52,464 nucleotides of DNA from a virus (lineage: Duplodnaviria > Caudoviricetes). Below the pieces are notes generated by a model, which did not search any database, was not told the DNA's origin, and saw only the letters and a program-made list of their open reading frames with translations. A program made the translations under genes and the position numbers. Below are positions 1 to 46,381 of this stretch, piece after piece. The stretch spans positions 1 through 52,464 of the IMG/VR virus record IMGVR_UViG_3300048999_000016. One strand, given 5' to 3'. The stretch's first letter is position 1. Every line of letters starts with the position of its first letter.

Positions 1-2166
1 ACGGATCACACGGTCAAACCCTGCCGCCGCCGCTGGCTTCAAATGAGCGAATGAAGAACGCGATAACAGATTGACTTGCAAGTATGCACGGCGTACCATC
101 CCGGTTTGCCAATTGGCTTCGTTGAATTGACCGCGTGGCAATCGTTTGTCGCCTTTCTTCCACGTAACGTACCGCAACAGAAATTCCATTAGTTCCTTAT
201 ATGCAACCGTGTCTGTTGCGTCGCCTGTTTCGCCTGCCTTGACTTTGTGTGCAATGAGCGCCGCGCCGTTTTCAACGATGTTTGCCGCCCACTCCAAATA
301 TGAACGCAATATCACCGGATTCCATGGATCGACGCCGATTGCAATCAATCCAGCGATACGCACAACGTTTGTGGGCACACGTCCCCAAAGTTCGCCCTGA
401 TCCTCTGTTTCAACGGCACGCGTATGCATATGCTCCGTGTATGCGTCAAACCACACACGTGCATCGGCATCTAGCATTATGTCGCGCACACTATTCTGTT
501 GTATCGCTGCAATGCATGACATGACAAGACCGCTGATGTCTTTGATTGTTTCTTGTGATAGCTGTATTTCGTCGCGCTGTTTGTTTATTTTTTTTGCTGC
601 CTCTTCTTTCGTGTAATTCAAAATGACGAATCGACCAATCGTGCCATCGTCAATCAAATTGGTATTGATTAGTTGCATGAATTTCTTTGGCGTCGCTTCA
701 CCAAGAATAGACAACGATGGCGATTGTGTGCTCGTGGTGTTCTGTTTCACATCGGCGAATACTGATGCACCGATAATGTTTCCCTTACCTGCTTGACCGT
801 GCAGATTCAAAATTGCGTGTTTCAATTGCACGTCGCCCATCATTGCTCGGTCATTAGTAATTCGCTGAAAGAAAGTGGAAAATTCCTTGATGCGAAACAA
901 CAGGGATTTTTGCGCGTGCATCTTGGCATACAAACCTTGACCGCTCGCCGCATACTCCATCGAATAGAATTCATTTAATGATGTGATCATCGGCAATGAA
1001 TTCACAATGGCGATAATGCCACGATGCATTGCTTCTTTGCCGCTGGTAGATGGCCCCAACACAATCGTGTATGTGTTTACGCCGTCGCCATCCACGTTAT
1101 ACACTCGGCCACATATGCCGCTCATAAATCCAATGGCACCGGCAATTGCAACTTTGATTTGTGGATATGGCGCGCGCCAATAGATGAACCGTGCCAATTC
1201 GCCGAATATGCCGGGCACTTCGCTAATTGCCTGCATTTCGGGTAACGCGTTAACCGATGTTGCCTCAATATCCGGTGTGGCGAGTGGTGTAAACGCTGGC
1301 CCTTGAATCGGTGGCAAAGGTACAAGATTGCCCACAGGAACGTCACGATCCATCGCGTGATCGATGGTAGCCTCAACATACTTAGGCCGTGATTGCACCT
1401 TATCGCGTCGGCCTAATGGCGTCTGAAACCACAGCCGTTCTACCTGCGCGCGATTGCGCGAATAGAACCACAGCATATTCACTAACGCCTGATCGCCTGC
1501 GCTGTCTGATTTGTCGGCAGTGTCCACCGGCATAGGCGTGCCCGGCTGTGCTTCCCACAACGCACGAAACTTTGCACCGTTGGCAGCGTTGAACGCCATT
1601 TGCAATATGTAATCGTCAGTGTATTTTTCTGGCGAGTCAACGCGCGCGGCTTCGGATCGTTGCCGGTGCGCTGTCAATGCTGCATGTAAACTCAACAATT
1701 GCGGAGTGCAATCGTTGATTGGTAGATCGCGCATTGTATTCCCGGTGACGGTCATATACCGTTCCTGAGAATACAGTTCAATCTTGCCGTACTTTACCGC
1801 AGTGGGAACCTTGCCGCGACAAATGAGATGTACGCCGTGACCGCTTGGCGAGAATTCCGCATACGTCGGTATATTGTCAAAAATTTCCTTTTGTCGCGCC
1901 TGCGTCGTTGGGTCATTGTTGGGGTCCAGATCGATAAACGTAAACGGATCAGACGCACTAAGCACGTAACCCACACCGTTATAATTGCCGCCGTTAATGC
2001 TAGTCGCATGTGCTGCCTCGAATGTTGACCACGTTTCAGGATTGGTTGTATCTGCTTTGTGTCCGGTGCGCGCGTTGTATGGAACCTTTGTTAGTTTCTC
2101 GCCGACCATTTCCAAACGCCATACAACCCAATTGGGGAATTGGATTAGATCATTGGGAATTGGCAT
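1..2166 (-). CDS. NrS-1-like primase-polymerase fused to DUF3987-type ATPase/helicase domain (3' end runs off the window)
   Basis: Translated by hand from ATG 2166: MPIPNDLIQFPNWVVWRLE..KVPYNARTG..NPETWSTF, catalytic FIDLD, YAEFSPSGHGVH, IELYSQERYMTVTG, later Walker A-like GPSTSGKE. Open to base 1 (722 codons). Absent from the track because there is no stop in the window. Confidence 0.88.
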   Translation of the reverse strand, partial: MPIPNDLIQFPNWVVWRLEMVGEKLTKVPYNARTGHKADTTNPETWSTFEAAHATSINGGNYNGVGYVLSASDPFTFIDLDPNNDPTTQARQKEIFDNIPTYAEFSPSGHGVHLICRGKVPTAVKYGKIELYSQERYMTVTGNTMRDLPINDCTPQLLSLHAALTAHRQRSEAARVDSPEKYTDDYILQMAFNAANGAKFRALWEAQPGTPMPVDTADKSDSAGDQALVNMLWFYSRNRAQVERLWFQTPLGRRDKVQSRPKYVEATIDHAMDRDVPVGNLVPLPPIQGPAFTPLATPDIEATSVNALPEMQAISEVPGIFGELARFIYWRAPYPQIKVAIAGAIGFMSGICGRVYNVDGDGVNTYTIVLGPSTSGKEAMHRGIIAIVNSLPMITSLNEFYSMEYAASGQGLYAKMHAQKSLLFRIKEFSTFFQRITNDRAMMGDVQLKHAILNLHGQAGKGNIIGASVFADVKQNTTSTQSPSLSILGEATPKKFMQLINTNLIDDGTIGRFVILNYTKEEAAKKINKQRDEIQLSQETIKDISGLVMSCIAAIQQNSVRDIMLDADARVWFDAYTEHMHTRAVETEDQGELWGRVPTNVVRIAGLIAIGVDPWNPVILRSYLEWAANIVENGAALIAHKVKAGETGDATDTVAYKELMEFLLRYVTWKKGDKRLPRGQFNEANWQTGMVRRAYLQVNLLSRSSFAHLKPAAAAGFDRVIR

Positions 2167-34175: not shown

Positions 34176-34517
34176 TCATTGATTATTAGTTGCTTTGCTA
34201 GTGGAAGCAACCGCGACCGTAGAATCTGCACTAATGATTTGCTCGCCGCTTGCGGGGGAGATGGCTGCGTCAAGGGTAGTTTTGCGTTGTCCATTTCTAT
34301 ACCATCCCCACAGTGTCACCACCAACGGCACGCCTAGTTTGAAAAATACCAGATAAATAAACGGATGTGGAACCAATCGCGCGTTGACTGCTTTCCAGAT
34401 CGAAACTAAACCATCGCGGAAATCAGCCGACGTTGCGAACGTTGTAATGCAAAATGCAATTACAACCGCGCCGCTATGTGTCGATATGTGGTATTTCGTC
34501 AGAAATCGTTGGAGCAT
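34176..34517 (-). CDS. Putative holin
   Basis: ATG 34517 (MLQRFLTKYHISTH...), two TM segments, basic stretch after TM2; overlaps the endolysin end. Confidence 0.6.
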   Translation of the reverse strand: MLQRFLTKYHISTHSGAVVIAFCITTFATSADFRDGLVSIWKAVNARLVPHPFIYLVFFKLGVPLVVTLWGWYRNGQRKTTLDAAISPASGEQIISADSTVAVASTSKATNNQ

Positions 34518-34971
34518 CGTCCGCACCTTTCCATTCCTTGTAAATTGCAAGCACTGTTTTTGTGCGCCATTCCGCCGTGGCGTAATTCGTGCTCGCCTCT
34601 TGCACGTATTCCTCGCCAGTCTTCGCATCGAGCGCACGCGCGTAGTGCGGATATGCATCGCGCAACCGAACCATGGTTGCCATATGATCCACAATGCTCG
34701 CCGTGTCGCTTGGGTAGCTAATGAACGGTGCCACGATTGAAACCGTAGCACCCTGTAAGCGCTCCCTCGTGGGCAATGCAACTGTGCCGAATTCGGCATG
34801 CCGATGCTGTTTCATGCCGAATAGATTGTGAAACTTCGTCGCAAGCGCCGACGTGCCCCACGCCGATTCCACGGCTGCCTCACACGCTGCGTAATCGGGC
34901 CAGATGTGCTGCGCCGTTGCGCATGCTTGCGCCGTTGCACGTAACCATGTCAGTTGCTTTTCGCTTGGCAT
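34474..34971 (-). CDS. Endolysin, GH73 glucosaminidase/FlgJ-like
   Basis: EAAVESAWGTS.LA....NLFGMK, T.E, F..Y, NYAT. Confidence 0.88.
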   Translation of the reverse strand: MPSEKQLTWLRATAQACATAQHIWPDYAACEAAVESAWGTSALATKFHNLFGMKQHRHAEFGTVALPTRERLQGATVSIVAPFISYPSDTASIVDHMATMVRLRDAYPHYARALDAKTGEEYVQEASTNYATAEWRTKTVLAIYKEWKGADDAPTISDEIPHIDT

Positions 34972-37343
34972 TAGATTGGTCCTATCCAGCCAACCGCGCT
35001 GAAATCTACGTTATCCATGTACGTTGTGCCCCAACCTGTCGGGGCTGTTGTGGCCTGTGACCCAAACCACACTGTGTCAATCGTGGCATTACCGGTATTC
35101 AGATTTGACGCCGATGTGTATGTAATCGTACCGTCAACCTTGATAATGTATTGTCCCGCCGTTGGACTAATTTTTGTATACGTTTCTACTAAGTGGATCG
35201 CGCCTGCCGGTACAGTTCCGCCGCCTGCTGTTGTGCCTGTGGCCTGATTATTACCTGTAACGGTTGGCGTTGTTTGTCCTAAATAGTAAGAAAATAGTTG
35301 TGCGCCACTATGGAAGAATTTCAAAATTCCCATAACTGACGTTGTGCTCACCGTGGAAACATAGATATATTGCCGCGTGTACAACGTTGACGTTGGCGAC
35401 GATAACACATCCGTGTAATAGTTATTACCGGTTGGGAACGCCGCACCATTTGGCGTAGTATGCGGATGCAATGTAGAAATTGACGGTGATCCGACCGCAG
35501 TTAATCCAACCGCTGTTGGTGTACCGCTGTCGAAATCGAACGAATCCAATTCGCCGGTTCCGGCTGTGCCGCCGCCGTTGCTGCCGGGATTGGTGTTAGG
35601 ATCAGCCGCGTTGCCAAACGTAACAATGTCAGTATCAACATTTATCGTTGACGTTGCCGGGCTGCCACTACTCGCCGTTGTCGGATCAAGATCGATTTGC
35701 CATTGTCCACCATTTTGCGCCCATGTAGTTGTTGTCGCTGGCAATGATCGTCCAATTGCGGTTGTTGTACCGTCAATTGTGAATGTATCCCACCAAATAC
35801 ACGGTGCCGTACCTGCTGCGCAGTTATGCGCAGCGGGTAAATCACGATGAAATGTCTGTTTAATATGGTGCCAACTACCATCAAACACCGTGCCACACGC
35901 TGCCGGTGTGTTAACCCAACCGTTGCCCTGATTATCATATTGAAAAATGAGCGAATGACCGTTACATTGCGAACCAGCCATGTAATCCCATCCGCTGCAA
36001 AACGAATAGGTGTCAAATTCCAAATTGATTAAACCGCTGGATCGAACCGCACGCACGTAAAAATCACGCGCGAAATTTGTAGATGTGCAATCCGCCGCAA
36101 GTGCGCTGCCGCTTACCGGTGTCCACAATGCTTGCGTATACACGCCGCCTGCAACGGCTGTACTGATACTCATCGTGCCCACAGCGTTCGCTGTGCCGGT
36201 TGCCGCGCTCGGAGTGTTATTGCCAAACGATGATTGCGGGGTACTTGCCGGTGCCTGTGATCCAACGCCGCCGCTGCAAACACTACTGCCGACATAGCAC
36301 GTTTTGAATTTCACGCTGCCGTCAGTTAAATCGACGGTTTGACTTACTGTGCCAATTCCTGTACCGGGATCACCCGCCGTACCACCGCCACCGGTAGTGC
36401 CGCCGCCTGTACCGCCGCCCGTCGTTCCGCCTGTGCCGCCTGCACCGGGGATGCCCAAATCTAAATAGAACGTATTTGGATCAGTACCCGCGCGAATGTT
36501 CGCCGTTGCCAGCGCCGTGGATGCGAGCGTTGCAACATTGCCGATTAGCATCGTTGGTGTTGGGCTGTCGGCACCGTTGGTTCCGTTCGTGCCGTTCGTA
36601 CCATTTGCACCGGCTGCGCCATCGGCTCCCGGTGGCCCTTGGGGGATGCCTAGATCGATGGCGTATTGATTGACACCCACAACGCGCACGGCTGCCGTGG
36701 CTTGGCTGCCGGGGTCCAGCGTGGATACAGTGCCCATCTGGAACGATGGCGTTGAACCGCTCGCGCCGTTCGTTCCGTTGGTGCCGTTTGTACCGTTCGT
36801 GCCGTTGGTTCCGTTGGCACCTTTAATCGGCCCAACCAATGGCCAGATTGTGCCACTTGCTGCCTTTGGCCCATACAGATTCATTGCCGTTGTATCGATA
36901 ACGAAATCGCCGACACTATGCGATATGCTCGCCGGTGGACCGCTGTTAGCATACAAACCGGGTCCAGCCGGGCCAGTGGCACCGGTGCCGTGCGTATCGG
37001 CATAATGCTTGTTTGCAACTTGATTGTCAGTTGTCGGATCAGCGATAAAAATATTCAACAGCGTTTGACCGTTCAGCAGTTGTATAACCTGCGCCGCTGT
37101 TATGTTGCTGCCTGTACCATTATTGCCGCCGACCGGTGACGGATACGAATACAACGCATGGAACTGCCACACGTGCAAACCCAAATAGTTAATGCACGTC
37201 CATTGTGCGCCGTTGGCATCGTTTTGTGTGTAGACATCACCCGGTGTACACGTTGCCGTGGGTGCGCCGTTGCCGTTCGTGTTGGTTGCCCACAGTGGTG
37301 CCGCTGCTGCAAACAACACAAGCATAGTTACAAATCTGCGCAT
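34971..37343 (-). CDS. Signal-peptide-bearing collagen-like fibre protein with two ConA/LamG-like C-terminal domains
   Basis: MRRFVTMLVLFAAAAPLWA; fibre motif DPTTDNQVANKHYAD; G-X-Y and (NGT)n repeats; duplicated GxV.TL..LGIP hinge; 10 Cys. Confidence 0.75.
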   Translation of the reverse strand: MRRFVTMLVLFAAAAPLWATNTNGNGAPTATCTPGDVYTQNDANGAQWTCINYLGLHVWQFHALYSYPSPVGGNNGTGSNITAAQVIQLLNGQTLLNIFIADPTTDNQVANKHYADTHGTGATGPAGPGLYANSGPPASISHSVGDFVIDTTAMNLYGPKAASGTIWPLVGPIKGANGTNGTNGTNGTNGTNGASGSTPSFQMGTVSTLDPGSQATAAVRVVGVNQYAIDLGIPQGPPGADGAAGANGTNGTNGTNGADSPTPTMLIGNVATLASTALATANIRAGTDPNTFYLDLGIPGAGGTGGTTGGGTGGGTTGGGGTAGDPGTGIGTVSQTVDLTDGSVKFKTCYVGSSVCSGGVGSQAPASTPQSSFGNNTPSAATGTANAVGTMSISTAVAGGVYTQALWTPVSGSALAADCTSTNFARDFYVRAVRSSGLINLEFDTYSFCSGWDYMAGSQCNGHSLIFQYDNQGNGWVNTPAACGTVFDGSWHHIKQTFHRDLPAAHNCAAGTAPCIWWDTFTIDGTTTAIGRSLPATTTTWAQNGGQWQIDLDPTTASSGSPATSTINVDTDIVTFGNAADPNTNPGSNGGGTAGTGELDSFDFDSGTPTAVGLTAVGSPSISTLHPHTTPNGAAFPTGNNYYTDVLSSPTSTLYTRQYIYVSTVSTTSVMGILKFFHSGAQLFSYYLGQTTPTVTGNNQATGTTAGGGTVPAGAIHLVETYTKISPTAGQYIIKVDGTITYTSASNLNTGNATIDTVWFGSQATTAPTGWGTTYMDNVDFSAVGWIGPI
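36571..36820 (-). repeat. Coding 9-bp tandem repeats encoding (NGT)n, in two blocks
   Basis: NGTNGTNGTNGTNGTNG and NGTNGTNGTNG in the translation. Confidence 0.85.
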
Positions 37344-37350
37344 GATTCCC

Positions 37351-39375
37351 CTATGAAATGCCGACAAGTTTCCACGTACCAGAACACACGTACATATTCG
37401 TGGGAGTAAACCAGATATTCATGCCGAGTGGACCGCCGCACGAACCGCCCGGTGCTCCCGGTGCCTGCCAAATCGTAATTGCGCCAATGACGCCGACGAT
37501 TTGTGCACCGCCCGTCATCGTTGGGAAATTGGTTGCTAGTAATGGCCTTTGCGCGGCTGAAATAACATCATCCACTTGCACCGCGCCGCCGAAATGCATC
37601 GCATTAAGCGACGTATCGCCCCATAACAGGAAATTGTGCAATCCGCCTGCGTTTAATGCACCATTGAGACACGCAACGGCAATACCTGTGCCGGTGTTGA
37701 CATGGTTGTTATAGATTGAAATAGAACCAATTGCGCCGCCATCGACTAAACAATTCGCCGTGCCAATTTTCGTATTTTCGTCAATTGACGTGGAAATAAC
37801 ATGCTTTAATTGAATTTCTGTTGTATTGTTCGCCGCGTTTGTTGTCGGATCAGTCGTATTTCCAGAATCGTTGAAGAAGTTATGACTGATTATCGAATTG
37901 ACGTTATTGCCGCCGAACTGCGCCGTGTAGCCTGTGGGGATCGTCACGCCGGGATCACCGGCAACGCATCCGGTGACCACACCGATTTTCTGTGCTTCAA
38001 AATACGTGGATTCAATTCGTGTGCCCGTAGTGAAGCACGATAGAAATCCACCGTACGAATTTTGATCCGCCGTGCCGTTATTGGCGATTGTGTTACTCAG
38101 CCAATAGTTACCGAACGCCGACGAAACGCTGCCGCCAATGATGTCATTTTCAAGCACACCCCAATGCAGATTGTTTTGCATGCGATTACTTACCGCATGA
38201 ATCGCGTTGGGTGCGTAGCCGCTTGTACCGGCACGCGTAGTGGCAACCCACGTTGACGGTGTGGAACGGTCCCACGTGCATAGATTGGAACCATTGCACG
38301 TATTGCCGTTTACGCGTACACCGTTCAAATTCAAACTTTCGGATGTTTCAAATAATTCGACGTGGTTTGCGCCATCGATCCAAATACCGTCACCGTTTGA
38401 AAATCCCTGTACGATGACATCGCGCACCGCGTAGCCTTGACCGGCACGAACATGCACACCGGAAATGCCGCTGGCTGTGCCAATGATCTTGCATCCGCCA
38501 TCGATCACAGTACCGCCCAAATTCACGGTGCCGTTAACTGCAACCGGCGTTGTGATAAAACTTCCGCCACCGGTGTATGTAATCGTGGCCTGTTTATCGC
38601 ACGTAAACGTTGTGCCGTTCGCGCGTGCCGGTAGTACAATGCCGGTAGTTACGGGGTTGTACACTCCCGGTGGAATCCATAGGTGGCACGGTGCCGCATC
38701 GGTGCATAGCGATGCCGCGCTATTCGCCATAGCGCCGATGTCGCCACCGGTCCCCATAAGCGCAACGTCAAGCATGCCGTTAATATTGCGCACACTGCCG
38801 TTTGTGCCGTTGAAATTCGTTGCTGTAAAATTGGTAAAGTTCACCAATCCTTCAACAGTCAAATTGCCGGGCACATCGAAACTACCGTTAACGCCATTTG
38901 CCGTAACTGTGCCGGGATCGCCTTTAACCGTCAACGGCCCATTGATTACATTGACCATTAAATTTGCGCTGCACCAATCAAACGTGGCACCGCCGCTCGG
39001 CGATATATCCACGTTCTGATACACCGTAGTGTGACCGTTAACAACAAACGTGAACGTATACGGAATTTTGGTATTGCTCGCGCCTGTCACCCATTGCAAC
39101 TGCAACGGTGCCATTTGACCATTGGTGATCGCGCGCGAAATGGCATTGCCCACGGCTTGATAGCTGTTGCCGCCTGTGGTACTGCGAAACGGCATCGCAT
39201 GCCCGGCACCGTCTGTGGCTTGAATTACCACCGTGCCATTTGCAAGACCGCCGCCAGCATCGGTTATACAACCGGTGTTATTTGATAGTGTGTTAATCGT
39301 GATTAGTTCCGGCGTCTGCGCCGTTACCACGATGGGAAATAGTAACACTGCGAGTGACAAAAGAAGACGCCGCAT
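37351..39375 (-). CDS. Signal-peptide-bearing tailspike-like protein (parallel beta-helix)
   Basis: MRRLLLSLAVLLFPIVVTA|Q; N-terminal beta-sandwich; WIPPGVY; Asn/Gly ladder repeats (GFSNGDGIWID, NNLHWGV); 14 Cys. Confidence 0.78.
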   Translation of the reverse strand: MRRLLLSLAVLLFPIVVTAQTPELITINTLSNNTGCITDAGGGLANGTVVIQATDGAGHAMPFRSTTGGNSYQAVGNAISRAITNGQMAPLQLQWVTGASNTKIPYTFTFVVNGHTTVYQNVDISPSGGATFDWCSANLMVNVINGPLTVKGDPGTVTANGVNGSFDVPGNLTVEGLVNFTNFTATNFNGTNGSVRNINGMLDVALMGTGGDIGAMANSAASLCTDAAPCHLWIPPGVYNPVTTGIVLPARANGTTFTCDKQATITYTGGGSFITTPVAVNGTVNLGGTVIDGGCKIIGTASGISGVHVRAGQGYAVRDVIVQGFSNGDGIWIDGANHVELFETSESLNLNGVRVNGNTCNGSNLCTWDRSTPSTWVATTRAGTSGYAPNAIHAVSNRMQNNLHWGVLENDIIGGSVSSAFGNYWLSNTIANNGTADQNSYGGFLSCFTTGTRIESTYFEAQKIGVVTGCVAGDPGVTIPTGYTAQFGGNNVNSIISHNFFNDSGNTTDPTTNAANNTTEIQLKHVISTSIDENTKIGTANCLVDGGAIGSISIYNNHVNTGTGIAVACLNGALNAGGLHNFLLWGDTSLNAMHFGGAVQVDDVISAAQRPLLATNFPTMTGGAQIVGVIGAITIWQAPGAPGGSCGGPLGMNIWFTPTNMYVCSGTWKLVGIS

Positions 39376-39382
39376 GCGTGGA

Positions 39383-39393
39383 AGAGTAGCACA
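39383..39393 (-). promoter_or_regulatory. Extended -10 promoter TGTGC-TACTCT, leaderless start
   Basis: Seven nt upstream of ATG 39375 with no SD; same motif at 39474 and 43231. Confidence 0.6.
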
Positions 39394-39399
39394 GTGCAC

Positions 39400-39430
39400 A
39401 AAAAAATGCCGGGAGTTTTTGGCTCCCGGC
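39400..39430 (-). terminator. Rho-independent terminator
   Basis: GCCGGGAG-ccaaaaa-CTCCCGGC followed by ATTTTTTT. Confidence 0.85.
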
Positions 39431-39467
39431 TGCCGTGACTACGCTCTTGCACGCAGTCAACCGAATT
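39400..39467 (-). ncRNA. Candidate ~68-nt small RNA
   Basis: TGTGC-TATGCT promoter at 39474-39484, hairpin TGACTGCG/CGTAGTCA, then the terminator; no ORF. Confidence 0.5.
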
Positions 39468-39493
39468 AAATCAAGCATAGCACAAGGGAAGAC

Positions 39494-39910
39494 CTAGCTT
39501 GGCGTCTCCACGCCGCTGCCCTGTGCGACCGCTCCACCGGTGCCGGGATCGCCACTTACAGGCGCGCTGCCGCTCGCACCCGCTCCGGCTGTGGGATCGC
39601 CGCCGACCGGTGCGGGAGTGCCGCCAGTGCCGGGATCAGTGGTAACGGTGCCGGGATCGGTGGTGGTGGTAGTGCCGCCGCTGGCATCGCCGCCGCTCGC
39701 CGGAACACCGGGCACACTCGCAAGCACGTTCTGCATCGCCGTGTTGTTTGTCTGCAACTGTGAAAGCAACGATGTCACCGTTGTGTCTGTGCTCGGATCG
39801 TCTGCATTCGCAATTGCGGCCTGCAACTTCGCAATTAGCTGCTGCTCGGTTGCTGTGTTCGTTTGCACTTGCTGTGCAAGCGATTTTACATCGATGTCTA
39901 CCTGTGACAT
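39494..39910 (-). CDS. Coiled-coil protein with Pro/Gly/Thr tail (longer start at 40060 possible)
   Basis: RBS GGAG before ATG 39910; helical N-half, DPG repeats. Confidence 0.6.
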   Translation of the reverse strand: MSQVDIDVKSLAQQVQTNTATEQQLIAKLQAAIANADDPSTDTTVTSLLSQLQTNNTAMQNVLASVPGVPASGGDASGGTTTTTDPGTVTTDPGTGGTPAPVGGDPTAGAGASGSAPVSGDPGTGGAVAQGSGVETPS

Positions 39911-40197
39911 GACACGCTCCAGTTTATTCAGATTTAACCGCTTCACTGCAAGATACAATTCAGCGAGAATTACCGCAAACGGTTGGTCACTGGTATACAA
40001 CACCATTAGTGACGCATCTAGAAATTTCTCACGCGCTGAAAACCGTTCGTCGTTTTGCATTTTATCCCTCGCAATTTTCGCCGGTAATCGTGCCCACAGT
40101 ACCGGCAAACTGTGTCCCGCGTTGGCGTATGAACGCTGGCACTGAACCGGATCATCCCCGATCTATTCCGCACAATACCATAACTCGCCGACAAAAA

Positions 40198-40959
40198 TTA
40201 ATTCGATTTGTAAGCTACTATCATGCCAACACTTACGTCTGATGCGGACAACGGAATCGTTGCAGATTGTGTGCCTGTTGTTGTTACAACTTTGTCATAC
40301 CATCCCAATGTGTTGCGCTCATTCGCCGTGCGATTCGTATAACCGGTGGTGGTGCCCCACGTCTGCCCCGCGTTGAAATTCTCGCAAAATGCAAGCACCA
40401 AATCGTTAGAACCTACTGTTGCCGCTGTTGTACCTGTGGCGCAACTTGTGCTTGCCGTGTTGTTGAGACTCACAACCGTTTTATCTGCCGTTGCGCTATT
40501 CCACGTGAAATTGGCCGAATAAGTTAATAGCGATATGTCAGTAAATGAACCGCTGCCGCCCGTCCACGTTATAACCGGGTGAATCGTTGTGGCTGTGTTG
40601 ACTAGACACGCATAGACACTTACGACGAAATGACCGCTGCCGTTAGACTGAAACGTACTCGCCGGTGTGATCGCTTGTATCTTGCTCGTGCATGGCGCGG
40701 TTCCTGTAAACGTAAGCGCCGCGGTTGCACTTGACGATACGCTCGCCGTCTTTGAAATCACAATCATTAATTCGCCAAATGCACTTGCCGCTGCTGCCGT
40801 GCAATTGGCTGTGGCTGTTGCCGTGTTTGCGACGCATAATGCCGTAGTCGGCGCAATGATGCGACCGGTGCCAAGCAACAAACCCGATTCGCCGTTATCT
40901 TGCTTCGCCGCGAGTGGCAACGCAATAAGTAACAGCGCAAGTAGCGAAACAAATTTCAT
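40198..40959 (-). CDS. Signal-peptide-bearing Thr/Ala-rich beta-sandwich protein
   Basis: MKFVSLLALLLIALPLAA|KQ; two related beta-rich halves; 6 Cys. Confidence 0.72.
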   Translation of the reverse strand: MKFVSLLALLLIALPLAAKQDNGESGLLLGTGRIIAPTTALCVANTATATANCTAAAASAFGELMIVISKTASVSSSATAALTFTGTAPCTSKIQAITPASTFQSNGSGHFVVSVYACLVNTATTIHPVITWTGGSGSFTDISLLTYSANFTWNSATADKTVVSLNNTASTSCATGTTAATVGSNDLVLAFCENFNAGQTWGTTTGYTNRTANERNTLGWYDKVVTTTGTQSATIPLSASDVSVGMIVAYKSN

Positions 40960-41336
40960 GGGCCAACCCAAATGTTAATTGACTGCGCGCCGCCTGTGAT
41001 CGATGACGTGTTGGGATTGCACACTTGCGCAATTACAGTGCCGCTGCCGGGTGCAACGCGTACCACTAAACCGCCACTGCTGCCGTAACCCGCAACTGCG
41101 CTTGGATCGCTGGCCCAACCGAAATTAACGTGACTCGCCGTAGTTATGCCGGTAGCTGTAAATGGGCTGCCTGTAACTGCCGTGCACGCTCCGGCTGTAA
41201 TCGCCGTTGTGGGCAAAGCAACGCCGTTATTGTTGTACGCGTTCAAACTACCGGCTTGACCGTGCACATTGTCAATGCGCACGAACACAAACAACACAAG
41301 CACAAATGTTGCGAAAATTCCAATTCGTTTCATCAT
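40956..41336 (-). CDS. Small signal-peptide-bearing fibre-tip-like protein
   Basis: MMKRIGIFATFVLVLFVFVRIDNVHG|Q; TTAITAGAC...QVCNP..SSIT; 2 Cys. Confidence 0.7.
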   Translation of the reverse strand: MMKRIGIFATFVLVLFVFVRIDNVHGQAGSLNAYNNNGVALPTTAITAGACTAVTGSPFTATGITTASHVNFGWASDPSAVAGYGSSGGLVVRVAPGSGTVIAQVCNPNTSSITGGAQSINIWVGP

Positions 41337-42241
41337 GCAACTATCATCCAATTCACAAGCGAAGTGTCAAGCGCGCTTGTCGAGTTAATCACGAACGACG
41401 TGCCGTTAACGATTGTGCCCACGCTCAAGACGCCGATTTGGCCCGAGACACCCGCATGCGTAAGAAACACCAACATGCCGGTTGCCGCCGCTGCGTTTGT
41501 AATCGTAACCGTGCCGCCTACTAATGTGGCTTGGCCTTTGGTGATCGTCGGCACGCCGAGTGCCGTACGCGCTGCTGCCGCCGTTGTGGATGCCGTGCCA
41601 CCTTGCGCAACCGCTAACGGCGTGCCAAGCGTAAGCGACGGCATCGTAACCGTGGCTGTGCCCGGTGTGCCGGTATGCGTGATTGATAGCGTGCTTGTGG
41701 GGTTGGTGCCTGCGCCGACCGTGACAACCATTTGCCATAGATCGTTCGCCGCCGCGCTGCCCGTCCAATAACCACCATACAATTGCAATATGGGCGAATT
41801 TGTATTTGCACCGCTGTTTACCGGTTGGTTTGATGCAAAGCGAACAAACCCCGTTGAACCTGCAACGCTCGGTGCCGTGAATAGCAAAACAGCATTCGGT
41901 GTGCTACCTGCGCCGACGACATGCTGCAATGACCAATTGATACTTGCCGCCGCGCTGCCCGTCCAATACGATCCGAAAAATCCAATCGTGTATGAGTTAC
42001 CATTCGCGCCGCTCGTGGCAACCGATGACGCACCATGATTCACAATTTGAAACGTTTGCGTTGCCGCCCATGTTTGCGCTGCTGCTAAAAAAGCAACGCC
42101 GGGCAACATCGTTGAATCAACCGCACCGCTTGCGTTTAATCCAACGATATTCCCGGCGTTAGCAGCACCGGCAGACGTTTGCGCCGCTCGCGCTTCGTCA
42201 TATCGTCCACCGTTATTGAAAACGTACTTGTCGCCTGCCAT
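41333..42241 (-). CDS. Fibre protein, no signal peptide
   Basis: Fibre motif LAVAQGGTASTTAAAARTALG; two tandem SGAN..YWTGSAAA..W...VGAG repeats; N-terminus shared with the next gene; no Cys. Confidence 0.75.
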   Translation of the reverse strand: MAGDKYVFNNGGRYDEARAAQTSAGAANAGNIVGLNASGAVDSTMLPGVAFLAAAQTWAATQTFQIVNHGASSVATSGANGNSYTIGFFGSYWTGSAAASINWSLQHVVGAGSTPNAVLLFTAPSVAGSTGFVRFASNQPVNSGANTNSPILQLYGGYWTGSAAANDLWQMVVTVGAGTNPTSTLSITHTGTPGTATVTMPSLTLGTPLAVAQGGTASTTAAAARTALGVPTITKGQATLVGGTVTITNAAAATGMLVFLTHAGVSGQIGVLSVGTIVNGTSFVINSTSALDTSLVNWMIVA

Positions 42242-42247
42242 GCCGTC

Positions 42248-42763
42248 CTATGCGATTACGGTTGTGTAGACTTGTGACGGCTGGAAATAAAGCGACGTTG
42301 CACTGATCGCATCGCCCACACGCTGCACGCTATTGCCTGCCGATGATGGCGCGGCTGCTGCGACCGCACCGGATGCGCCGAGGAACGCCGGGCCAACAGT
42401 TAGGCCAGTTAAACCGGTGATCAATCCTTCACCGATTTGCACCGTACCACTCGCACCGCTGCCGATGGCTCCCGGTGCAAAGCCGTTTGCCTCATTGCCT
42501 GCCGTTGTGTTGTCTGCCGGTTTAACGTTTGCCGTGCCTGCATTGTTATACACACGCACTAGCTGCCCGGCTGCAATCGCTGCCGATGCAAGCACCGTGA
42601 TTGTGATTAAACCGCTGATACCGGCAAGCATCGTTGCGTCAATCAAACCGGCACTATTCAAACCGACTAGCTTACCGGCATCACCGGCTCCCGCGCTTGT
42701 TTGATTTGCGCGTGCTTCATCGAACCGGCCACCGTTGTTTACTAGATACTTATTCCCCGCCAT
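42248..42763 (-). CDS. Capsid decoration/cement-like (DUF2190-like) protein
   Basis: ASAAIAAGQLV..., KPAD..., G.ITGLTGLT.GP.FL...G, QRVG.AISAT.L.F.P. Confidence 0.65.
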   Translation of the reverse strand: MAGNKYLVNNGGRFDEARANQTSAGAGDAGKLVGLNSAGLIDATMLAGISGLITITVLASAAIAAGQLVRVYNNAGTANVKPADNTTAGNEANGFAPGAIGSGASGTVQIGEGLITGLTGLTVGPAFLGASGAVAAAAPSSAGNSVQRVGDAISATSLYFQPSQVYTTVIA

Positions 42764-42772
42764 TATTTCCCC

Positions 42773-43222
42773 TTATGCCGCAAGCACAACCGGCGGCTGT
42801 AGTTGCACAAGCAACGTTGTTGGATTGATTGGTATCCCGATGATTTGGCAAAATCCAACCGTGGGCGCAGTTTGGGAAAGTGTGCCGCTCGGCCCTAAGA
42901 ACACCGGGCCATTGTTCCAGTTCCAACCGGAATTGGTAATTGCACCGCTGAATTGAATATCAAGATCGCCACCGGCTTGTACGCTGTTGGAAGCGATTCC
43001 GGCAACATTCCCCGCCTGCGTCGCATCGGCGCTGTCAGCACGCACAGGAACGCCGTCAACGATGCTCATAGGCGTGTATTGGCCTATGGAGACGGGCGGC
43101 TGGACTCGAAACAAGGCAACGCCACTGCCGGGTGCTCCCGGTGGTCCCGGTGGCCCTTGCAAGCCTTGCGCAGCGGGTGCGCCAATCGGGATCGTACCAG
43201 TGAAGCCGACGAATCCGCCCAT
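42773..43222 (-). CDS. Cement/decoration-like protein with a short collagen segment
   Basis: GLQGPPGPPGAPG; GWNW..GPVFLG..G.L.QTAP..GF...IG; leaderless ATG 43222. Confidence 0.65.
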   Translation of the reverse strand: MGGFVGFTGTIPIGAPAAQGLQGPPGPPGAPGSGVALFRVQPPVSIGQYTPMSIVDGVPVRADSADATQAGNVAGIASNSVQAGGDLDIQFSGAITNSGWNWNNGPVFLGPSGTLSQTAPTVGFCQIIGIPINPTTLLVQLQPPVVLAA

Positions 43223-43241: not shown

Positions 43242-43274
43242 AAACACAAACGGCGCGAGAATTAACTCGCGCCG
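43242..43274 (-). terminator. Rho-independent terminator
   Basis: CGGCGCGAG-ttaatt-CTCGCGCCG followed by TTTGTGTTT. Confidence 0.75.
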
Positions 43275-43327
43275 TGCGTATCACCGGTGAAGCCGAGGCA
43301 ATGCGGCATGGCCGATGAATCGTTCAA

Positions 43328-45689: not shown

Positions 45690-45968
45690 TTACAATCCAG
45701 AAAATAAGCGGATACACAATCCACCAAGCAGTTCTAATTGCAATTCCAAATACTCGCGTTTGCATAGCAGCTTGACCATTTCTTTCGTTGTGAATCGGCA
45801 AACAATGGTTGCGCGCACCGGATCATACAACGTGTATGCCGACCGCATATTGCGAATGTGGTGGTAGCACTTCACCCATGTATCGGCACACGTAATCACA
45901 ATTGTTGCAGATGGTGACGCGAGTAATCGGTATATCATCGTGTAACCTATCCTGTCACGGAATTTCAA
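45690..45968 (-). CDS. Hypothetical protein
   Basis: ORF coupled to the upstream gene. Confidence 0.4.
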   Translation of the reverse strand: MKFRDRIGYTMIYRLLASPSATIVITCADTWVKCYHHIRNMRSAYTLYDPVRATIVCRFTTKEMVKLLCKREYLELQLELLGGLCIRLFSGL

Positions 45969-46381
45969 TAGCGCACCAACCGGGATTGATTCGCTTGCTG
46001 TGTGTGAATCGCGTTAATGTTGCGCGCCACGTTGCCGAGTGCCCACGCTGCCGCAACGAACGCGATGCCACGGCCAATGTACGGGTGCCCGGCACGGTTA
46101 AACAACGCTGCCGTGCCATCGACAACCAACACCGTGCCAAACTCATATGCGGCAAGCCTGCCGGGTGATTGCACCACGAACGCCGGTAACGTGTGTTCGA
46201 TCATTGCCGGGTGCATCGTCACACCCTCACGCGTAGTGAGATAATCGCCAAGCGCACCGGCTGCAACTAAACCGTATGCGGTATAGTCAGCAGCATTGAA
46301 ATCAATGGTTTTGTGTTTGCGCGTCTCTTGCGCATGCACCGTAGTTGCGAGCAATAGGACCGCGATGGCTGCTGTTTTCAC
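45965..46381 (-). CDS. Signal-peptide/membrane protein
   Basis: MKTAAIAVLLLATTVHA|Q then hydrophobic helices, DYLTT..G...E..LP.FV. Confidence 0.65.
   Translation of the reverse strand: MKTAAIAVLLLATTVHAQETRKHKTIDFNAADYTAYGLVAAGALGDYLTTREGVTMHPAMIEHTLPAFVVQSPGRLAAYEFGTVLVVDGTAALFNRAGHPYIGRGIAFVAAAWALGNVARNINAIHTQQANQSRLVRY

Follow-up and report, generated by a model that had tools for sequence, protein, structure and literature searches.

How do proteins built like phage fibres and spikes come to carry the marks of proteins made for secretion? This question is raised by a gene cluster of a soil phage with a siphovirus-type genome layout. The DNA analysed, referred to here as the window, is the entire IMG/VR record IMGVR_UViG_3300048999_000016 (52,464 bp; CheckV completeness 100%). 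The cluster lies at the head of a long minus-strand block whose genes run in the order I (DUF7303), H, G, F, E, D, C, B, A, endolysin, membrane proteins and terminase. A sequence-only reading of this locus had separated exported, cysteine-paired proteins (A, B, D and E) from cytoplasmic, cysteine-poor ones (F, G and H), and had proposed that the former are secreted, oxidatively folded and docked onto virions during or after lysis. Tailed-phage assembly is, by the textbook account, wholly cytoplasmic, and lambda Stf, P2 gpH and P22 gp9 all fold in the cytoplasm and have no signal peptide. In the full-text literature searched there was no description of tail fibres with signal peptides in tailed phages.

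It is suggested here, on the evidence of their sequences, that A, B, D and E are late phage proteins of fibre, spike or lectin type that are suited to life outside the cytoplasm, and we regard it as highly probable that they are exported and oxidatively folded. The complete chain of events, including docking onto the virion at lysis, is the best single reading of the locus and is offered tentatively, its chances being somewhat less than even. The signals and their conservation, the cysteine statistics, the domains and the gene order are what the sequence shows; that the proteins are in fact exported, cleaved, trimerised and timed in this way and, above all, that they dock, is inferred from them.

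Predicted secretion signals and the pairing of cysteines

Signal peptides were called with a home-made heuristic for n-, h- and c-regions and not with SignalP; a call was considered strong when hydrophobicity was at least 2.6 and the n-region was positive. Among the 76 greedy open reading frames (ORFs) of the window, strong signal-like starts were found in A, B, D, E and a single further ORF of 138 amino acids (aa), and in no others. The predicted signal sequences are MRRFVTMLVLFAAAAPLWA in A (cleaved before TN), MRRLLLSLAVLLFPIVVTA in B (before QT), MKFVSLLALLLIALPLAA in D (before KQ) and MMKRIGIFATFVLVLFVFVRIDNVHG in E (before QA). In all four the n-region is basic, the h-region is an uncharged run of 10-15 hydrophobic residues, and the A/G-type cleavage site has small residues at positions -3 and -1. 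The sequence-only reading was therefore correct in assigning signal-peptide features to these minus-strand genes (Table 1), in giving them 10, 14, 6 and 2 cysteines (Cys), as counted from the same starts, and in describing F, G and H as lacking a signal peptide and having 0, 0 and 1 Cys. Gene I has 0 Cys.

Signal peptides are also present in most relatives of these proteins. A search with A gave 53 proteins, 14 of which are strong matches sharing the C-terminal 460 residues; all 13 full-length members of this set start with a signal peptide, the sequences of which differ, and the remaining match, P0010, lacks its 5' end. The copy of A in the related locus L002 also has a signal peptide. Relatives of B number only 4 in 5.8 billion clusters and every one carries a signal peptide, as does a further copy in locus L003, while for D, which is represented by 47 cluster representatives, a signal peptide is present in 35 of the 37 that are at least 225 aa long. 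The sole relative of E, P0060, has the E domain at the C-terminus of a longer ORF that begins without a signal peptide, and is a fragment on a 930-bp contig.

Two other fates for these N-termini were considered and set aside. Export of A by the Tat route was one; RR is found in 6 of the 14 A-family N-termini (A of the window and 13 relatives), and the peptides are 18-26 aa long with short, very hydrophobic h-regions. The other was lipoprotein anchoring, which would call for a lipobox with Cys at +1; none of the four proteins has a Cys where cleavage is predicted. The fifth signal-like ORF of the window (45965-46381, minus strand) begins with MKTAAIAVLLLATTVHA, cut before QE, has 0 Cys and further hydrophobic stretches, and lies among small genes far from the cluster; its product may be a membrane or exclusion protein.

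The distribution of Cys in these families is far from haphazard. Cys 349/356, 460/483 and 508/515 of A are kept in every one of 13 sequences, and the pairs 32/50 and 419/449 are present only together. In B the two members of each of the pairs 36/135, 259/295, 360/366, 447/569 and 646/664 co-occur in the same sequences. After removal of the predicted signal the number of Cys is even in all 13 A relatives, all 4 B relatives and 30 of 35 D relatives, that is in 47 of 52 proteins, these being kin and their counts not independent trials. In three of the five odd D cases a Cys lies between the cut used and a later A-x-A site. As a control, the ORFs of the window that are at least 100 aa long, contain Cys and have no signal peptide divide into 18 with even and 19 with odd counts. 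Mature Cys counts among the relatives range from 2 to 18 and yet are mostly even, which suggests that Cys have been gained and lost in pairs, and this parity would seem to be a strong disulfide signature. A correlation between signal peptides and Cys was also found when homologous clusters were surveyed, as the sequence-only reading had proposed should be done. Across these loci 15 of 16 signal-bearing proteins have an even mature count, and the density is 1.75 Cys per 100 aa in the 16 signal-bearing proteins compared with 0.43 in 9 signal-less cluster proteins (Mann-Whitney p = 4e-4, the rows not being independent), with two Cys-rich signal-less exceptions.

The Cys-rich jelly-roll of A is found outside the phage context as well, in two cellular signal-peptide proteins of one Acidobacteriota genome (L016 1495-2280, minus strand, 261 aa; L021 1459-2787, minus strand, 442 aa). 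This hints, at the level of sequence, at an exchange between host secreted proteins and phage fibres.

It might be argued that the N-termini are inactive as export signals, and that A, B, D and E remain in the cytoplasm and assemble there as ordinary fibres. The signal-peptide calls are heuristic and export is predicted only, and the two Cys-rich exceptions mentioned above show that signal-less proteins of fibre clusters may be rich in Cys too. However, n-, h- and c-region features have been kept in 52 relatives despite their divergence, a reducing compartment would hardly account for even mature counts or for Cys that come and go in pairs, and the Cys-rich domain of A occurs in secreted cellular proteins. 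We therefore consider an ordinary cytoplasmic life for these proteins to be very improbable. With their secretion signals and strictly paired Cys, the four proteins are very likely to fold outside the cytoplasm, and in this respect the computations (conserved signals, invariant or paired Cys, the contrast in parity and the secreted kin of the jelly-roll) uphold what had been proposed from the window alone.

Fibre architecture and the setting of relatives

Hallmarks of phage fibres can be seen directly in the sequence of A, namely DPTTDNQVANKHYAD, (GTN)n runs and GPPGADGAAGANG, and the protein matches a PHROG 'minor tail protein' at 6.6e-6. Its shaft occupies ~300 residues. A search of Pfam with A found no family, the threshold for collagen (PF01391) not being reached, and (GTN)n and GPPG runs are visible; PF01391 is present in more distant matches of the A search. 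In the predicted structure the only confident parts are residues 330-580 and 600-787, with a predicted local distance difference test (pLDDT) score mostly of 70-92, and they form two jelly-rolls. In Foldseek these heads resemble the laminin LG4-5 pair (E 8.7e-10) and, taken singly, Cip1 (3zyp, TMt 0.64) and TtX122A, at TMt 0.60-0.64. The model of B is weak (mean pLDDT 55.5). The PDB entries that match it best are GH28, Depo32 (a depolymerase of a Klebsiella phage) and the P22 tailspike (E 2e-4 to 4e-4), so that B looks like a beta-helix protein of depolymerase type. When solved structures were searched by sequence with B and with the A profile, nothing was found below E 0.1. The clusters nearest to the jelly-roll of D in the Atlas are viral. 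The fibre hallmarks listed by the sequence-only reading can thus be confirmed for the motif and shaft runs of A, and the beta-helix attributed to B comes only from a weak model.

In their overall organisation the relatives of A and B are like classical fibres and tailspikes, with an N-terminal module, a shaft and a swapped receptor-binding or enzymatic C-terminus, encoded by a gene that follows baseplate or J genes. A, B, D and E differ from the classical proteins in having a signal peptide, which those lack, folding as they do in the cytoplasm.

Analysis of the loci in which relatives occur proved informative about the company that these proteins keep. L002 has the order B, A, endolysin, terminase and portal, as in the window. 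L009 and L008, which overlap and come from one metagenome, encode a P2-type baseplate, in which Phage_base_V, GPW_gp25, Baseplate_J and a small protein are followed by the A relative P0001 with its signal, and then by collagen and beta-helix proteins that lack a signal and by one more ORF with a signal-like start. In the lambda-type tail module of L003 (Acidobacteriota) the stretch from the tape measure to the distal tail genes contains four signal-bearing genes. L032 has, in succession, a J-type protein, a signal-less protein and a signal-bearing collagen/SGNH protein with 'tail fiber' PHROG matches, and then membrane proteins. The signal-less member of this row contains NTD-2, the beta-rich N-terminal domain of B, and NTD-2 is thus common to signal-bearing and signal-less proteins of fibre slots (hhalign probability 92.9, E 3.8e-7). 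In L033 two signal-like proteins come after a 980-aa protein that resembles the J type by position only, and in L035, part of a 57-kb record with terminal repeats, four consecutive signal-bearing proteins stand ahead of the endolysin. A complex prediction for the N-terminal 104 residues of P0001 (three copies) and the small protein that precedes it in L009 scored 0.00 and, having been made without controls, says nothing either way.

The A profile was matched in 5 of 401 Acidobacteriota genomes and strongly in only two, from which it appears that A is a phage family and not a common cellular family. The NTD-2 profile likewise found matches in 5 of the 401, and a comparison of NTD-2 with gp15 of the phage Tunturi_3 was not significant (probability 7.5). 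Several relatives lie in lambda-type prophages of Acidobacteriota. A tblastn search of 50,697 deposited phage records with A, B and D gave no match.

Some individual proteins of these loci deserve separate mention. One of the signal-bearing proteins of L003 (6470-11020, plus strand) has 1516 aa and combines Big_3_5, an internal NTD-2, fibre repeats and an A-type jelly-roll; its N-terminal region looks glycanase-like by eye and has no family match. In the phage that contains L035 (G402) most large proteins are without a family match. Its record also has seven plus-strand ORFs of 190-384 aa in the structural half (L040 9482-15669), and the N-termini of some look glycosyltransferase-like by eye.

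Possible docking onto the virion or free action at lysis

If the favoured reading is right, each of the four proteins would be made with a cleavable Sec signal, threaded unfolded through the inner membrane and cut by signal peptidase I. Folding would take place in the periplasm, probably with trimerisation and with all Cys paired in disulfides, and the proteins would be held there until the downstream holin-endolysin cassette opens the envelope. Their N-terminal modules would then most likely dock onto the particle built in the cytoplasm, where they could serve as accessory appendages that bind or cut polysaccharide beside the J-type central fibre. The result would be a two-compartment particle, with a head and tail of cytoplasmic origin to which Sec-exported, oxidised and trimerised fibres or spikes are attached once holin and endolysin have merged the compartments; we think this possible, at slightly under an even chance. 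Indirect support for docking comes from the relatives in canonical tail-fibre slots, from the sharing of NTD-2 with signal-less proteins of such slots, and from two cultured phages of Cellulophaga baltica in which signal-peptide proteins are recorded as virion proteins by tandem mass spectrometry (MS/MS).

In the podovirus phi18:3 (NC_021794.1) the products gp085-gp087 are recorded as virion, structural or tail proteins 'based on experimental MS/MS proteomics analysis', and their presence in the virion rests on these notes, as it does for the second phage. Signal peptides are found in all three and in none of the other eight MS/MS-marked proteins translated, and the genes lie upstream of endolysin, terminase and portal. 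In the siphovirus phi10:1 (NC_021802.1) gp091-gp094 have signal-peptide starts and the same MS/MS annotation. As with A, B, D and E, the Cellulophaga proteins have Sec-type signal peptides and are encoded in a row that adjoins lysis genes; the row of phi18:3 is upstream of terminase and portal as in the window, and that of phi10:1 follows the tail module. The proteins are of fibre or pectate-lyase type, and in them an N-terminal module is kept while the rest is swapped. Unlike A, B and D, to which they have no detectable sequence relation, they have 0-3 Cys and come from phages of a Bacteroidota host. With these records taken into account, and by analogy only, virion association of A, B, D and E, which we would otherwise have called unlikely, comes to be possible at not quite even odds.

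The two Cellulophaga phages also resemble each other. The signal and first 40-95 residues of two structural proteins are common to phi18:3 and phi10:1 (L041 4545-8584 and L042 44100-47391; 83% over 118 aa and 59% over 70 aa), after which the sequences diverge completely, so one N-terminal module would appear to serve two tail types, a podovirus and a siphovirus.

A number of observations count against docking, or against the chain of events leading to it. The sequence-only reading had stated that the tail operon has no fibre gene, and this proved to be wrong; a J-type protein of 906 aa is present and is the candidate for a signal-less host-recognition protein of that operon, which lacks side-fibre genes only. 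A J-type fibre being already encoded, A, B, D and E are not needed for infection. The calls of signal peptides come from a heuristic in place of SignalP, and two proteins with even Cys counts are Cys-rich without a signal peptide (L008 5337-7178, plus strand, 613 aa, 12 Cys; L032 9668-11827, plus strand, 719 aa, 8 Cys). NTD-2 in L003 is inside the 1516-aa protein and not at its N-terminus. A, B and D are without a tblastn match among the deposited phage records. As for the analogue, the Cellulophaga proteins are unrelated to A, B and D and poor in Cys, detection by MS/MS can also mean a co-purified secreted protein, the records are silent on removal of the signal, and the N-terminus shared by phi18:3 and phi10:1 fits a host-directed N-terminus equally well as a shared adaptor. 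Lastly, the tail-region genes examined in Tunturi_3 and Tunturi_4, isolated phages of Acidobacteriota, carry no signal peptides, and the design is therefore not general for phages of this phylum. In a term search of the Tunturi paper (PMC11924767) neither 'signal peptide' nor 'mass spectrometry' was found.

The principal alternative is that A, B, D and E are exported but act free or in the periplasm, as factors that bind or cut polysaccharide and are never part of the particle. They could trim the exopolysaccharide or lipopolysaccharide, newly made or already surrounding it, of the infected cell and then, after lysis, of its neighbourhood, helping the progeny to escape the matrix and to avoid being lost on debris; this would amount to an extra capsule-level step of lysis or to a receptor-destroying function. 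The depolymerase-type beta-helix fold of B, albeit from a weak model, the likeness of the A jelly-rolls to Cip1 and glucuronan lyase, and the glycanase-like, SGNH-esterase and chitobiase-type domains of relatives are all in keeping with such a role. So is the gene order, as signal-bearing genes adjoin lysis genes in the window, L002, L035 and L032, and a terminator-like hairpin may place B and A at the head of a lysis-terminase unit. There is in addition a precedent in WceF of Pantoea stewartii, described as an exported trimeric beta-helix enzyme of tailspike fold that cuts the exopolysaccharide of its own producer (PMC7949094). WceF differs in having a Tat signal and in being encoded in a polysaccharide synthesis cluster, whereas the A family is phage-encoded and has RR in only 6 of 14 members. 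However, enzymes that are released by lysis do not require a signal peptide, and A retains an N-terminal module and a long shaft that would be superfluous in a soluble enzyme. The relatives in tail-fibre slots, the N-terminal domain held in common with signal-less proteins of those slots and the analogous Cellulophaga proteins recorded in virions also speak against free factors, and we judge this alternative to be a serious one though rather unlikely.

Lambdoid Shiga-toxin genes offer a parallel in position. They encode signal-peptide proteins, lie between a late terminator and the lysis genes, and their products mature in the periplasm and are released by phage lysis. B and A occupy a similar place between a terminator-like hairpin, the function of which is putative, and the endolysin. 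Shiga toxins, unlike A and B, have no fibre architecture.

A third possibility is that the proteins are displayed on the host envelope by means of their N-terminal domains, with consequences such as receptor masking, phage exclusion or altered adhesion. This is what might be expected from the mosaic adhesive trimer (MAT) fibres of the predator Bdellovibrio bacteriovorus, which resemble phage fibres; 21 of these are described with a signal peptide, a conserved beta-rich N-terminal domain of ~110-130 aa and a variable fibre and tip (PMC10769870). B has the same layout, its NTD-2 being ~112 aa long, and several relatives are found in prophages. MAT fibres are nevertheless products of chromosomal genes and are shown on the predator's own surface, whereas A, B, D and E belong to a late phage operon and have relatives in tail modules, and the likeness to the MAT N-terminal domain, which was compared by description only, is one of layout. 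Conversion of a lysogen is made unlikely by the phage having its own DNA polymerase, helicase and primase-like protein, and no integrase among the ten non-structural proteins scanned. The genes are also set in a late block with overlapping stops and starts, and the sequences of A, B, D and E show neither a lipobox nor a signal for sorting to the outer membrane. Display on the envelope is thus improbable.

Were docking of the exported proteins to be true, a late step of particle assembly would take place outside the cytoplasm and host range would depend on the Sec and disulfide machinery of the host. When genomes are annotated or hosts predicted, a signal peptide should then cease to be a ground for setting a fibre gene aside as 'not structural', and engineering of such fibres would require periplasmic production. 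It would also mean that phages use disulfide-stabilised lectin or enzyme domains borrowed from host secreted proteins. If the proteins are instead free exported enzymes, there would be a capsule- or matrix-level step in phage release.

The remaining genes of the cluster and the genome

Table 1. Positions in the window and main characteristics of the cluster and of other features named in the text
Feature	Position	Strand	Characteristics
Primase-like ORF	1-2166	-	DUF3987 and NrS-1-type helix bundle; extends past the record end
J-type central tail fibre/tip, 906 aa	14318-17038	-	No signal peptide; phrog_469 3.4e-194; phrog_31 'central tail fiber J' 2.8e-20
Endolysin	34474-34971	-	Glucosaminidase family; start overlaps the stop of A; membrane-protein genes come after
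Gene A, 790 aa, 10 Cys	34971-37343	-	Predicted signal peptide, small Cys-paired N-terminal domain, fibre motif, (GTN)n/collagen-like shaft, two LamG/ConA-like jelly-roll heads
Gene B, 674 aa, 14 Cys	37351-39375	-	Predicted signal peptide, ~112-aa beta-rich N-terminal domain (NTD-2), putative beta-helix (depolymerase/tailspike-like), Cys-paired C-terminus
GC-rich hairpin with T-run	39408-39430	-	Terminator-like; 32 nt upstream of the B start; stem of 8 pairs, including 7 G-C; tail ATTTTTTTGT
Gene C, up to 204 aa, 0 Cys	39494-40108	-	No signal peptide; helical region, then long Gly/Thr/Pro/Asp-rich tail
Gene D, 253 aa, 6 Cys	40198-40959	-	Predicted signal peptide and jelly-roll-type beta sandwich
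Gene E, 126 aa, 2 Cys	40956-41336	-	Predicted signal peptide and small domain; start overlaps the stop of F
Gene F, 302 aa, 0 Cys	41333-42241	-	No signal peptide; N-terminal module common with G; C-terminal Pfam K1-lyase_C 5.4e-18
Gene G, 171 aa, 0 Cys	42248-42763	-	No signal peptide; N-terminal module of F and C-terminal module of H; phrog_4368 2e-11
Gene H, 149 aa, 1 Cys	42773-43222	-	From the ATG at 43222; no signal peptide; short collagen-like run and C-terminal domain
GC-rich hairpin with T-rich tail	43250-43275	-	Terminator-like; close upstream of H; stem of 10 pairs, including 8 G-C

The cluster is separate from the tail operon and stands ahead of the lysis and terminase genes; as the sequence-only reading had noted, it ends directly at the endolysin gene, which is of Glucosaminidase type. 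Overlapping stop/start pairs are found at F/E, E/D, B/A and A/endolysin. The two hairpins of Table 1, both strong, occupy the only two intergenic gaps of the cluster, where they bracket H to C, the total of terminator-like sites in the region being no higher than in shuffled sequences.

Among the signal-less genes, F and G share their N-terminal module at 45% identity over 107 aa (E 5e-22), and F has a weak match to a Tunturiibacter phage Tunturi_3 'tail fiber protein'. The C-terminal domain of H matches proteins described as 'structural', 'head decoration' or 'neck fiber' in 18 phage records. C sits between the exported-type genes D and B, and the first ATG-type start may not be its true start; no family was found for it at the curated threshold.

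Elsewhere on the minus strand the genes follow the order small and large terminase, portal, major head protein, tail tube, tape measure and the J-type fibre, and a family-A DNA polymerase and a helicase are encoded on the plus strand. The absence of an integrase from the ten proteins scanned suggests that the phage is probably virulent. With TerL only L002 is close (86%), four more relatives being at 33-35%, and a comparison with the 401 Acidobacteriota genomes gave 2 matches, both partial and at 40-44%; one is in G050, an unpublished genome of which no further use is made here. Because TerL gives few close relatives, assignment of the host is based on the fibre genes only. The primase-like ORF runs off the record despite its rating as complete; the genome is probably circular or permuted, with the record cut at arbitrary points.

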